DNA from: Escherichia coli
GTDB lineage: Bacteria > Pseudomonadota > Gammaproteobacteria > Enterobacterales > Enterobacteriaceae
Assembly (NCBI RefSeq): GCF_003334255.1
Contig: NZ_QOWU01000047.1
DNA length: 43,500 bases
Reading direction: 5' to 3' (one strand)
The notes below the pieces were generated by a model, which made no database searches, was not told where the DNA came from, and worked only from the letters and a program-made list of their open reading frames with translations. Shown piece after piece: positions 13,180 to 28,435 of this stretch. Positions within the stretch are counted from its first letter, which is position 1. The number at the start of each line of letters is the position of its first letter. Both the position numbers and the translations under genes were made by a program.

Positions 13180-15156
13180 TTATGGCATTACGCCATCAGT
13201 CAGATAGTTGCCATGCTTAACCGCGTGACGCCGCCACATCAGGAGAATTGCAGTCGAGATTGCAGCCCCCACCAATGCCGCGCCAAACCAGCCAATTGCC
13301 GCCATAACACCGCCCGCGCCATTATCATGAAGTAAAAAGAGCGAGAAAATGCCGGCACCGGGTGTCGAAAGGCCGATATTCATCGCACCGACAATAGCGC
13401 CCGTTACCATAGAGCCCAGCACAAACGAACCAATAACCCGCAGCGGATCTTCAATCGCCATCGGGATCGCCCCTTCGGTAATACCTGCCAGCCCTAACAG
13501 CCAGGTGGATTTCCCGGTCTCAATTTCAAACTCTTTAAACAGGCGCGGTGCGAGCATCGTGGAAGCGGTTACGGTAAATGCCGAAACCATTTTGACGGAG
13601 GCGAAAATGGCATACGGGCCGTAAACGCCGTTCGCCATTGCGCCCAGGCAGAATGCATAAGCGGCTTTATTCACTGGCCCTCCAAGGTCAAAGGAACACA
13701 TAAAACCGAGAATGGCACCCAGCAACAGCGCGTTACTTCCTGACAGACCGTTCAGCCAGGCGGTAAGCGAGTTATTGATCCAGGCGACAGGTTCCCCCAC
13801 CACAAACAGCATCAGACTGCCCGCTCCCAACGTACCGAGCACCGGGTAGAGATAAAAAGTCAGGAATCCATTGAATTTACTGCTAAGACGCAAGTGATTT
13901 TTCACCCAGCGCATCAAGTAACCGGCTATCAATCCGCCAACGACCGCGCCGAGAAACCCGGAGCCGATCATGTTGGCGGCAAGTCCAGCCGCAAAGCCTG
14001 GCGCTAACGCCGGTTTATCTGCCAGAGAATAGGCGGTATAGGCCGCGAGCACCGGTACCATCAAAATTCCGAGCAGCCCGCCGCCCAGCTTGCGGTACAT
14101 CCACAGCCAGGAGTTTTCTTCATTAAACAGATCTTGTAGCCCGAAGATTTGCGACAGTAATACCGCGACCGCCAGCACCGTGCCCCCCGCGACAATCAAC
14201 GGTACGGCAAAAGAGATTCCGCTCAACAGTGCCTGTTTCAGCTCCGTTTTGACACTTTTCACCGGTTGCGTATCTTGCTGTACGGTACGCGTCTCATCGC
14301 TACGCTTGAGGGTAAGCGCTTGTTGGATCAACGCTTCTGCATGGCGAATCGGCTCGGCAACAGGCACTGAAAGCGCGGGAATGCCATTAAAACGCTCACT
14401 CTCCTTGATGGCGACTTCAGCCGCAAAAATACAGGCGGTTGCACTATTGAGTTGATCCGCCGTTAAACGCCCTTCAATGCCGTTAGCGCCTTGTTTTTCA
14501 ACGTAAACATTTACGCCGAGTTTGCGTCCGGCTTTTTCCAGATATTCCGCAGCCATATAGGTGTGAGCAATACCCGCCGGACAGGCCGTTACGCAGACGA
14601 TAGTTGGCGCGTTGGAAAAAGAGGCAGAAGGTTGCGTGCCTCCCTTGTCATCCAGCGCCGAGAGCAACTCATCAGGCGTCGTCGCCGACTGTATACGCGC
14701 CCGAATCTCATCATCCGCAAGGCGCGTGGTCAGCGCTGTCAGCAGTTGCATATGCGTAGTACCCGCTTCATTGGGGGGAATCGCCAGCAGCACCACTAAA
14801 TCAACTGCTTCCGGGCCATCAACGCCTTCCCACTGAAGCGGCTCGCTGAGTGTGGCGACCGCAAACGCCGCTTCTTTTACCGCAGCAGTTTTGCCATGCG
14901 GCACAGCCAACCCTTCACCTAAGGCGGTCGGGCCAAGGCTTTCACGGCGATACACTTCTTCCAGAAATTGCTCAGTACTGGAAATTTTCCCCAGAGCAGC
15001 AAGACGTTGAGTCAACGCGTGGATGGCCTCTTCACGGCTGGTAAAGCGCGCATTCAGACACAACGCATCGCGGTGGGTCAGAGTCGTCAGATTCATCATG
15101 ATCCTCACTTGATCGTTTTTATAGTCGCGCCAGTGTGCCCGATAAAACAATACCAT
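13180..15156 (-). CDS. mngA: PTS 2-O-alpha-mannosyl-D-glycerate-specific EIIABC component (fructose-family PTS permease)
   Basis: 658-aa ORF with N-terminal EIIA, EIIB and C-terminal polytopic EIIC domain. Confidence 0.92.
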
Positions 15157-15230
15157 TATGTGATCAATTTCACTTGATTGAAATTATTTGTATTGTATTT
15201 GTATTATTTACAGGATGAATTTATCGGGCA
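15136..15230. promoter_or_regulatory. mngR-mngA divergent control region: three tandem TGTATT direct repeats flanked by an 11-bp perfect inverted repeat (candidate MngR operator)
   Basis: tgtattgtatttgtatt at 15189-15205; tgcccgataaa at 15136-15146 and its exact reverse complement tttatcgggca at 15220-15230. Confidence 0.55.
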
Positions 15231-15264
15231 TAATGGTTAAATTCGTATTAATGAGATACTAAAA

Positions 15265-15987
15265 ATGGGACACAAGCCCTTATACCGGCAGATTGCCGAT
15301 CGCATTCGTGAACAAATTGCGCGTGGCGAGCTTAAACCTGGCGATGCGTTACCCACTGAATCAGCGCTACAAACAGAGTTTGGCGTCAGCCGGGTTACGG
15401 TGCGTCAGGCTTTGCGCCAGCTAGTCGAGCAGCAGATCCTCGAAAGCATTCAGGGCAGCGGGACTTACGTCAAAGAAGAGCGGGTCAATTACGATATTTT
15501 TCAGTTAACCAGTTTTGATGAAAAACTGTCGGACCGTCACGTCGATACACACAGTGAAGTTCTGATATTCGAAGTGATTCCGGCTGACGATTTTCTTCAG
15601 CAACAGCTACAAATCACCCCGCAGGATCGTGTGTGGCATGTGAAGCGCGTGCGCTATCGCAAGCAAAAGCCAATGGCGCTGGAAGAAACCTGGATGCCGC
15701 TTGCGTTGTTCCCGGATCTCACCTGGCAGGTCATGGAAAATTCGAAATATCACTTTATCGAAGAAGTGAAGAAAATGGTTATCGATCGTAGCGAACAGGA
15801 AATCATTCCTCTGATGCCAACCGAAGAGATGAGCCGTCTGCTTAATATCAGCCAGACAAAGCCGATTCTTGAAAAAGTATCGCGTGGATATTTAGTTGAT
15901 GGTCGGGTGTTTGAATATAGCCGCAACGCTTTTAATACCGATGACTATAAATTTACCCTGATAGCGCAGCGAAAATCATCGCGATAA
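15265..15987 (+). CDS. mngR: GntR-family (HutC/FarR subfamily) transcriptional repressor of the mannosylglycerate operon
   Basis: 240-aa ORF with N-terminal GntR winged-helix (LPTESALQTEFGVSRVTVRQALRQL) and UTRA effector domain; divergent from mngA. Confidence 0.92.
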   Translation: MGHKPLYRQIADRIREQIARGELKPGDALPTESALQTEFGVSRVTVRQALRQLVEQQILESIQGSGTYVKEERVNYDIFQLTSFDEKLSDRHVDTHSEVLIFEVIPADDFLQQQLQITPQDRVWHVKRVRYRKQKPMALEETWMPLALFPDLTWQVMENSKYHFIEEVKKMVIDRSEQEIIPLMPTEEMSRLLNISQTKPILEKVSRGYLVDGRVFEYSRNAFNTDDYKFTLIAQRKSSR

Positions 15988-22643: not shown

Positions 22644-22682
22644 CTTTAAAAACTGTCTTAGTGTCAGGGGCAGTTTTTAAAG
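22644..22682. promoter_or_regulatory. 12-bp perfect inverted repeat with 15-bp spacer in the sucA upstream region (candidate protein-binding site in the internal suc promoter region)
   Basis: ctttaaaaactg (22644-22655) and cagtttttaaag (22671-22682) are exact reverse complements; located ~120-160 bp upstream of the sucA start. Confidence 0.35.
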
Positions 22683-28106: not shown

Positions 28107-28435
28107 TATGCCTAAACACAAAAAATTGTAAAAATAAAATCCATTAACAGACCTATATAGATATTTAAAAAGAATAGAACAGCTCAAATTATCAGCAACC
28201 CAATACTTTCAATTAAAAACTTCATGGTAGTCGCATTTATAACCCTATGAAAATGACGTCTATCTATACCCCCCTATATTTTATTCATCATACAACAAAT
28301 TCATGATACCAATAATTTAGTTTTGCATTTAATAAAACTAACAATATTTTTAAGCAAAACTAAAAACTAGCAATAATCAAATACGATATTCTGGCGTAGC
28401 TATACCCCTATTCTATATCCTTAAAGGACTCTGTT
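28107..28435. promoter_or_regulatory. Strongly AT-rich upstream region of the ybgD fimbrial operon (candidate nucleoid-protein-silenced promoter)
   Basis: ~330 bp of very low GC content with multiple A/T tracts immediately upstream of ybgD. Confidence 0.5.

Follow-up and report, generated by a model that had tools for sequence, protein, structure and literature searches.

MngR, also named FarR, is a GntR regulator of the HutC subfamily, and its operator in Escherichia coli was reportedly described by Quail et al. in 1994 and Sampaio et al. in 2004. The FarR motif consists of direct repeats of TGTATTAWTT (Quail 1994, as cited in PMC4494728), and the mngR promoter is regulated through two MngR sites (bioRxiv 10.1101/2024.12.09.627516). 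In the same paper, FarR, NagQ and NanR are grouped as regulators that depart from the GT-N-AC palindrome rule. A literature search for TGTATT together with MngR returned nothing relevant.

We analyzed a 43.5-kb stretch of E. coli K-12 DNA (hereafter the window), in which a preliminary description had assigned a cluster of TGTATT repeats and an inverted repeat bracketing it to the mngR/mngA control region. A locus identity search confirmed that both features lie in the control region of the divergent genes mngA (- strand) and mngR (+ strand). A total of 56 loci were fetched for comparison; the operator was compared across 38 Enterobacterales loci from other species, and conservation scores were computed on 27 distinct sequences. 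No Escherichia or Shigella species was among the loci returned by the cross-species scan of genome contigs. Intermediate taxa, sought through a protein search and the contigs encoding the hits, comprised E. coli-like and Citrobacter-like loci only. Shuffles and allele comparisons were done on the 168-bp intergenic region. The features of the control region are the following.

15094 to 15096, - strand: mngA start codon according to RefSeq/PGAP (MNLTTL...), with GAGGAT upstream at 15106 to 15101.
15137 to 15132, - strand: -10 hexamer of a putative mngA promoter of the CRP class II / extended -10 type, CACACT in K-12 and CACAAT elsewhere.
15136 to 15146, no strand assigned: left arm of the inverted repeat, TGCCCGATAAA, at -11 to -21 of the putative mngA promoter and including the T-tail of the inverted MngR-like box.
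15145 to 15154, - strand: inverted MngR-like box with two mismatches, GGTATTGTTT in K-12 and TGTATTnTTT in most species, of putative function.
15159 to 15174, no strand assigned: CRP-like site TGTGATCAATTTCACT, centred at 15166.5, one of the best conserved intergenic blocks outside the operator.
15178 to 15207, + strand: mngR promoter P1, TTGAAA-18-TATTAT, from the promoter scan.
15185 to 15209, + strand: MngR (FarR) operator, with two conserved ATTTGTATT units of 11-bp period at 15186-15194 and 15197-15205.
15207 to 15234, + strand: P2, a sigma-70-like pair, TTTACA-16-CATAAT, from the promoter scan, with an implied start at about 15241, just before the box at 15244.
15215 to 15262, + strand: 15-codon upstream open reading frame (uORF; MNLSGIMVKFVLMRY*), which occupies the 5' end of the mngR mRNA and stops 2 nt short of the ATG of mngR (15265).
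15220 to 15230, no strand assigned: right arm of the inverted repeat, TTTATCGGGCA, at +7 to +17 of the mngR mRNA, in uORF codons 2-6 and at -21 to -11 of P2.
15244 to 15253, + strand: downstream MngR-like box CGTATTAATG, a two-mismatch match located 44 bp (about four helical turns) from the box at 15200.

The TGTATT cluster is the published MngR (FarR) operator and holds nothing new in kind. It had first been read as three tandem TGTATT hexamers: the 17-mer tgtattgtatttgtatt is indeed found at 15189-15205, but its units are not clean hexamers. They read TGTAT-TGTATT-TGTATT and start at 15189, 15194 and 15200, with spacings of 5 and 6. The proposal that these repeats serve as a site for the MngR repressor agrees with the published motif and with the two sites reported at the mngR promoter, and was already known. 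The exact consensus box TGTATTATTT at 15200-15209 is the only match to TGTATTAWTT without mismatch in the window, and boxes with two mismatches begin at 15189, 15244 and, on the - strand, 15145. A repeat finder detected two copies of the 10-nt unit TATTTGTATT with a period of 11, at 15185-15194 and 15196-15205, a related copy ATTCGTATTA at 15241-15250, and an inverted repeat (I2) formed by the inverted box and the direct boxes.

Comparison across species showed TGTAT pairs with 11-bp spacing in 37 of the 38 loci, and the two operator blocks are near-invariant in the alignment (conservation of 0.99 and 0.95). The middle TGTAT copy, at 15194, is not conserved across species and is specific to K-12-type alleles. 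Most species keep the GGTATTA of the downstream box (0.89), which probably serves the mngR promoter as its second MngR site, as well as the AATACA of the inverted box (0.86), which stands towards mngA, with the CRP-like site and the putative mngA -10 to either side.

The operator boxes overlap the -10 of P1 (15202-15207) and the -35 of P2 (15207-15212). The P1 hexamers are also given in PMC3946193, and P1 leads to the RegulonDB transcription start of mngR at 15214, which corresponds to position 765149 of MG1655, with GATGAATTTATCGGGCATAAT as the 5' end of the mRNA (PMC4965119 S1). The -35 of P1 is not conserved across species (0.40); the hexamers of P2, a putative promoter in vivo, score 0.95 and 0.98 among the 27 distinct sequences. 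The uORF is translated and modulates mngR expression (PMC4965119 Tables 1-3), and its ATG is missing from the Citrobacter and Enterobacter sequences. As a by-product of the comparison, the -35 of the RegulonDB mngR promoter and the uORF emerge as specific to E. coli.

On the other side of the region, the left arm of the inverted repeat had been described as lying within the first codons of mngA. This applies only to the long open reading frame from 15156 (658 aa), and is contradicted by the RefSeq/PGAP start at 15096 (638 aa) and by homology, since protein similarity begins exactly at the RefSeq start in 38 of 38 other species. Conservation does not reach into the 20-codon extension, which contains in-frame stops in many species. 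Because the RefSeq start is at 15096, the left arm lies upstream of mngA and is not coding. As a side observation, the evidence backs the shorter RefSeq start of mngA.

The CRP-like site is the only match to TGTGA-N6-TCACA with at most one mismatch in the window, and its TGTGATCAnTTTCAC is exact in 34 of the 56 fetched loci (conservation 0.94). The CRP genomic-SELEX paper makes no mention of mngA. Conservation and spacing would place the mngA promoter at the hexamer listed above, with a transcript start near 15125 and the CRP-like site at -41.5. The sole mngA promoter proposed so far is a prediction, TTAATA-19-GATAAA, which takes the right arm as its -10 (PMC3946193); its start would fall at about 15213. 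A separate product of the comparison is a cross-species map of the control region, made of two MngR units of 11-bp period, the inverted box, the CRP-like site and P2 as a second, conserved promoter-like pair.

Both arms of the 11-bp perfect inverted repeat were confirmed. They are exact reverse complements 73 nt apart, with centres separated by 84 bp (8.0 helical turns), and the complementarity extends imperfectly to 17 nt (15130-15146 and 15220-15236; 15/17, 88%). The repeat had been judged unlikely by chance, and the order of magnitude was about right: a perfect inverted repeat of at least 11 bp arose in 0.86-0.98% of dinucleotide-preserving shuffles of the intergenic region. Its significance did not, however, survive multiple testing. 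For 11-bp perfect inverted repeats with a loop of at most 100 nt, 0.93 are expected in the window and 8 were observed; since about one is expected per scanned window, a single long-loop repeat is not significant.

Complementarity of the arms is complete (11/11) only in K-12-type alleles of E. coli; it falls to 10/11 in WCHEC4533 and to 9/11 in the divergent Eco889-type allele. Citrobacter amalonaticus and C. koseri reach 9/11, a Citrobacter-like metagenome locus 8/11 and C. sedlakii 7/11, and all other genera, including Enterobacter and Kluyvera, have 1-5/11. The left-arm consensus in other species is TGnCAGAnnAA. In the right arm, the inner 7 nt show a conservation of 0.46, against 0.40-0.57 in neutral spacers, and the outer 4 nt (GGCA), within the GGCATAAT block, reach 0.92. 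Conservation is limited to these outer 4 bp on account of their position next to the -10-like hexamers in two conserved modules of divergent promoters. Paired cells represented 48.5% of the alignment compared with 45% in shuffles, with only the outer pairs kept; inner pairs were maintained in only about 20-55%, G-U pairs included. Covariation between the arms did not exceed that of shuffled or slid controls, and one true compensatory change, A-T to G-C, was found in C. amalonaticus.

The locus is carried by 3868 E. coli genomes. An identical 95-mer is present in at least 2375 E. coli genomes, which is little informative at such low divergence. Most E. coli alleles differ by 0-3 bases over the 168 bp, and the Eco889 allele is changed at 2 of 22 arm positions and at 15 of the other 146, that is, at the same rate. 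Position 15227, in the right arm, is polymorphic (G/A/T) within the species. We therefore discarded conservation inside E. coli as evidence of function, being uninformative when most alleles are nearly identical and the divergent one changes as fast in the arms as elsewhere. The arms were also considered as the ends of a transposon or MITE, a candidate rejected on the interior of the element: the CRP-like site and MngR boxes are collinear and conserved in genera without complementary arms.

The geometry of the repeat would suit a pair of half-sites for another dimeric or tetrameric protein, or for an auxiliary binding mode of MngR, that loops the 84 bp around the CRP-like site and the MngR boxes. 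The perfect 11-bp symmetry, the integral number of helical turns from centre to centre and the partial retention of 8-9/11 in Citrobacter are consistent with this reading, as is a natural spacing variant, 95NR1, which adds exactly 11 bp and preserves the phase. A second variant, MSI001, breaks it by adding 6 bp, however, and the arms contain no TGTATT-type motif. The inner 7 nt are unconserved, and 9-10/11 is a common state among E. coli alleles (a 574-genome class at 90-95% identity, represented here by Eco889 alone). We regard such half-sites as highly improbable.

Predicted folds raised another explanation, in which the arms pair as a cruciform in supercoiled DNA or as a long-range stem in a leader RNA and thereby affect transcription or translation of mngA or mngR. 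The arms form an outer stem around two inner hairpins that is more stable than in shuffles, both for single-stranded DNA (-19.3 kcal/mol, z = -4.7) and for RNA of the - strand (-29.6 kcal/mol, z = -2.7). A cruciform calls for a short loop of a few nucleotides, and it was rejected because the 73-nt spacer is far longer than its extrusion tolerates. As for RNA, the 5' end of the mngR mRNA falls between the arms, at 15214, and this transcript therefore lacks the left arm. A transcript from TTAATA-19-GATAAA would lack the right arm, because that arm is its -10, and one from the conservation-based mngA promoter would lack both. The promoter scan predicted no - strand promoter upstream of 15236, and an Rfam search of the element gave no match at E <= 1. 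A leader stem or riboswitch-like element was rejected on these grounds together with the absence of covariation, and pairing of the arms is overall an extremely remote prospect. The suggestion that the inverted repeat could form a cruciform or serve as another protein site was thus not supported, given that the arms are not conserved in other mngA-containing genomes, are separated by 73 nt and share no known transcript.

Paired high-affinity H-NS sites are known at proU, and the arms are not known to match any factor motif but that of H-NS. The arms could be inverted high-affinity nucleation sites with the core CGATAAA, eight helical turns apart, through which H-NS would bridge or spread and silence both promoters in E. 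coli only. The H-NS motif is tCGATAAATT (PMC2094087), and the right arm matches it at 9/10 on the - strand (CCGATAAATT, i.e., cCGATAAATT), rising to 10/10 with the G-to-A change of the Eco889 allele (TCGATAAATT). The left arm reads CCGATAAAAC and matches at only 7/10, and its CG is destroyed in Eco889. Resembling described nucleation sites, the two core copies lie in an AT-rich regulatory region (31% G+C), and the mngR-mngA spacer was flagged with an H-NS site in genomic SELEX, although this mark is at the level of the spacer and not position-resolved (PMC3946193 Table 1). SlyA, said to antagonise H-NS, raises mngAB 3.4-fold when overexpressed, but in its table, as extracted, no H-NS-regulon code follows the mngAB row (PMC5797941). 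Unlike described nucleation sites, the candidate arm sequence lacks conservation beyond Escherichia, and comparable matches abound in the window: 11 with at most one mismatch against 3.2 expected, most of them far from the mng intergenic region. We therefore consider H-NS nucleation at the arms unlikely. The broader proposal that the two mng promoters of the E. coli lineage gained matched 11-bp (15/17) segments at -21 to -11, binding a bridging protein, most plausibly H-NS through the CGATAAA(T) core, that clamps the CRP site and the operator and so adds silencing peculiar to E. coli, appears more doubtful still. Were such paired sites real, they would offer a small case of lineage-specific control by a nucleoid protein laid over a conserved repressor circuit.

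The evidence as a whole favours, with good though incomplete confidence, a known MngR operator accompanied by a coincidental inverted repeat whose arms have no paired function; coincidence had been the fallback of the preliminary description. The inverted repeat is real and lineage-specific, and most likely functionless. MngR binds direct TGTATTAWTT repeats, here two units placed on the -10 of P1 and the -35 of P2, and may be assisted by two auxiliary boxes, one 44 bp downstream at 15244 and one in inverted orientation towards mngA (15145-15154). With boxes positioned at both promoters, bound MngR would block RNA polymerase at both divergent promoters. Each arm would correspond to the -21 to -11 segment of one divergent module, composed of a MngR box, a spacer and GGCA followed by a CAyAAT-type -10, with selection acting presumably on the outer 4 bases only, next to the -10 hexamers. 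The inner 7 bases would match by chance in the K-12-type lineage, from arms that may have been 7-9/11 complementary earlier in the Escherichia/Citrobacter clade; either drift or, speculatively, template-switch correction of a quasipalindrome could have produced it. Several observations run counter to this explanation: the arms mirror each other exactly in their distance (-21 to -11) from the two promoter-like -10 hexamers, with centres 8.0 helical turns apart, the repeat is improbable within this one region (0.9% of shuffles) and extends to 15/17, Citrobacter relatives retain 8-9/11, with the compensatory change in C. amalonaticus, and the single strand is predicted to fold much better than shuffles. 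Overall, the locus is of little significance, its operator having been described since 1994-2004 and its inverted repeat failing the conservation test.

Quasipalindrome correction by template switching is known in E. coli, with short spacers in the classic cases. The repeat resembles such elements in that a 7-9/11 repeat present in relatives has become perfect in one lineage. It differs by its 73-nt spacer. The NagQ (TGGTATT repeats) and NanR (TGGTATAW repeats) operators are likewise built of short, direct, non-palindromic units containing GTAT; they serve other regulators and targets, and these operators, as described in PMC4494728, do not include a bracketing inverted repeat. The closest system is the FarR/MngR operator of E. 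coli itself, which is the same locus, with a sequence identical to that of K-12 and no difference; its overlap with the mngR promoter fits autorepression and repression of mngAB. To this described operator the comparison adds that the unit conserved across Enterobacterales consists of two repeat copies with a period of 11 bp, the middle TGTAT being allele-specific, and that the copy number changes by slippage in some E. coli strains.

The direct repeats between the divergent mngR and mngA genes are bracketed by TGCCCGATAAA and TTTATCGGGCA; the second is the exact reverse complement of the first, as the preliminary description had stated, and a 73-nt spacer separates the two. Pairing of these arms continues imperfectly to 17 nt (88%). 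When the 168 bp between the genes were shuffled with dinucleotides preserved, 0.86-0.98% of the shuffles held any perfect inverted repeat 11 bp or longer. The 43.5-kb window holds eight such repeats with loops of up to 100 nt, against 0.93 expected, and the majority are short-looped (10-27 nt). The five with short loops, at 709-742, 22644-22682, 28316-28364, 35208-35241 and 38552-38585, are probably terminators or protein sites; of the other long-loop repeats, one (37709/37796) overlaps one long ORF and another (19342/19408) three.

Over the 401 bases surrounding the feature, identity to E. coli K-12 is 100%; among 5426 complete E. coli genomes, the locus was found in 3868. For comparison, genome contigs were scanned with MngR, yielding 38 loci from Citrobacter, Enterobacter, Kluyvera, Leclercia, Lelliottia, Buttiauxella, Atlantibacter, Serratia, Edwardsiella and others, all with a divergent mngA. 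Block conservation was computed on an alignment of 28 intergenic regions and is given below for the elements of the control region.

Elements of the mngR/mngA control region
15132-15140, - strand: extended -10-like element
15136-15146: left arm, TGCCCGATAAA
15145-15154: inverted MngR-like box AAnAATACA; conservation 0.86
15159-15174: CRP-like site, TGTGATCAnTTTCAC; conservation 0.94
15178-15207: P1, the mngR promoter in RegulonDB, TTGAAA-18-TATTAT (promoter scan; listed in PMC3946193); -35 TTGAAA at 15178-15183, conservation 0.40
15186-15194 and 15197-15209: ATTTGTATT units; conservation 0.99 and 0.95
15189-15205: TGTATT repeats, tgtattgtatttgtatt
15207-15234: P2, a second sigma-70-like pair, TTTACA-16-CATAAT, implied start near 15241, conserved at 0.95-0.98 across genera; within TTTACA-N16-GCATAAT, 0.95 at 15207-15212 and 0.98 at 15229-15234
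15215-15262: 15-codon uORF opening the mngR mRNA
15220-15230: right arm, TTTATCGGGCA
15244-15250: GGTATTA box; conservation 0.89

Two start codons compete for mngA (window 15094-15156, - strand). The left arm had been placed within the first mngA codons, which is true only of the longest ORF (start at 15156, 658 aa). RefSeq/PGAP starts mngA at 15096 (638 aa) in all E. coli records examined, homology to MngA begins at this methionine in 38 other species (tblastn), many species have in-frame stops within the 20-codon extension, which is not conserved, and the 15096 ATG is preceded by GAGGAT. The left arm therefore belongs to the upstream region of mngA.

On the other side, the sigma-70 start of mngR is reported at MG1655 765149, with GATGAATTTATCGGGCATAAT as the mRNA 5' end (RegulonDB; PMC4965119 S1 table). 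This position corresponds to window 15214, so the right arm forms +7 to +17 of the mngR mRNA, from which the left arm is absent. The uORF is translated and modulates mngR expression (PMC4965119); its ATG and the P1 -35 are unconserved outside Escherichia. From conservation and spacing we infer two further promoter assignments. For mngR, P2 may be the main promoter or the ancestral one. For mngA, the CRP-like site TGTGATCAATTTCACT is the sole near-consensus CRP core in the window, and few blocks of the region outside the operator are as well conserved. To its left lies ATTGTGnCAGA, that is, TCTGnCACAAT on the mngA strand; this is an extended -10-like element, for which most species have TGnCACAAT and K-12 a degenerate version (GGGCACACT). 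The element implies an mngA start near 15125, with the CRP-like site at -41.5. This arrangement points to an mngA promoter of CRP class II whose spacer holds an inverted MngR box; no published account of it was found in the literature searched. At 15166-15185, the perfect 7-bp inverted repeat AATTTCA/TGAAATT encloses a 6-nt loop and shares bases with both the P1 -35 and the right half of the CRP-like site; the right half of this repeat is unconserved in other species.

Relative to P2 the right arm spans -21 to -11, and the left arm spans these positions in the putative promoter of mngA. Each arm would be the spacer and -10-proximal part of one of the two divergent promoter modules, in mirror image. 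Loss of the arms in other mngA-containing genomes had been named as evidence that would refute the proposal, and this is what the comparison shows: outside E. coli and Citrobacter relatives, complementarity falls to a few positions.

Complementarity of the two arms
K-12: 11/11
WCHEC4533: 10/11
Eco889-type allele: 9/11
C. amalonaticus and C. koseri: 9/11
One further Citrobacter-like locus: 8/11
C. sedlakii and another Citrobacter-like locus: 7/11
All other genera: 1-5/11

In the 28-sequence alignment, paired cells made up 48.5% against 45.0% in shuffles, covariation was no greater than in shuffled or slid controls, and the four outer pairs (TGnC/GGCA) alone were kept. At 0.46, conservation of the right arm's inner 7 nt equals that of neutral spacers (0.40-0.57). 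Within E. coli, the 95-mer is found unchanged in at least 2375 genomes, and the repeat is perfect in seven of nine sampled alleles, which differ from K-12 at only 0-3 of 168 bases. In the divergent allele of Eco889, the member sampled from a second E. coli allele class (574 genomes, 90-95% identity over the 401 bp), 2 of 22 arm positions changed versus 15 of 146 elsewhere, which is the background rate, and the arm changes are not compensatory. This allele (loci L002 and L056; equivalent to window 15097-15264) shows 17 differences over the 168 intergenic bases, against 0-3 in other alleles, lacks the middle TGTAT and has AATACA restored in the inverted box; it may be an old or introgressed haplotype. 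E. coli I3 (L004) has lost the control region and first mngR codons through a 158-bp deletion (15128-15285 equivalent) flanked by imperfect direct repeats, CGCCAGTGTGCCCGAT and CGGCAGATTGCCGAT, and RefSeq annotates its mngR as shortened.

The bracketing repeat had been considered a possible cruciform or second protein site, a proposal that the unconserved arms do not favour. Single strands do fold with the arms as outer stem (z = -4.7 for DNA, -2.7 for RNA). Against a structural role stand the absence of a known transcript with both arms, the loop length and the lack of an Rfam match; the promoter scan predicted no - strand promoter upstream of the right arm. A 73-nt loop disfavours cruciform extrusion. 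It is improbable that the arms serve as paired H-NS sites: the right arm read on the - strand, CCGATAAATT, matches 9 of 10 positions of the H-NS motif tCGATAAATT (PMC2094087) and the left arm 7 of 10, but such matches are common in the window (11 against 3.2 expected) and those in the arms are not conserved. Genomic SELEX marks the mngR-mngA spacer as a whole as H-NS-bound (PMC3946193), and SlyA overexpression raises mngAB 3.4-fold (PMC5797941). Function is mildly favoured by the way the arms mirror each other in their position against the two -10 hexamers, their centre-to-centre distance of 84 bp (8.0 turns), a single compensatory change (A-T to G-C) in C. amalonaticus and the 8-9/11 retention in Citrobacter. 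These points are also compatible with common descent of an imperfect repeat made perfect in one lineage, speculatively by a quasipalindrome template switch. As a sequence feature the inverted repeat is real, but it has no supported mechanism as a pair.

The string at 15189-15205 had been read as three tandem TGTATT hexamers; it is present there, as TGTAT/TGTATT/TGTATT, the copies starting at intervals of 5 and 6 nt. A repeat finder returned a 10-nt unit, TATTTGTATT, with a period of 11 and a related copy at 15241-15250. Two TGTAT copies lie exactly 11 bp apart in 37 of the 38 other-species loci, and the middle copy is restricted to K-12-type E. coli and a few others. Copy number varies in loci aligned to 15076-15290: E. 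coli 95NR1 (L057) carries an extra 11-bp unit, TATTTGTATTG, and MSI001 (L058) an extra 6 bp, so the arm spacing is not fixed. Both changes look like tandem-repeat slippage. MSI001 also differs by point changes: its CRP-like site has TTTAAC in place of TTTCAC, and its P2 -35 has TTTGCA in place of TTTACA. The window has one exact match to TGTATTAWTT, at 15200-15209, and matches with two mismatches at 15189, 15244 and, inverted, 15145-15154. The proposal that the repeats are an MngR site agrees with the FarR (MngR) motif, given in PMC4494728 as "direct repeats TGTATTAWTT" (citing Quail et al. 1994), and with the regulation of mngRp via two MngR sites described in a 2024 preprint (bioRxiv 10.1101/2024.12.09.627516). 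Overall, the TGTATT repeats are the MngR operator already described rather than a new one.
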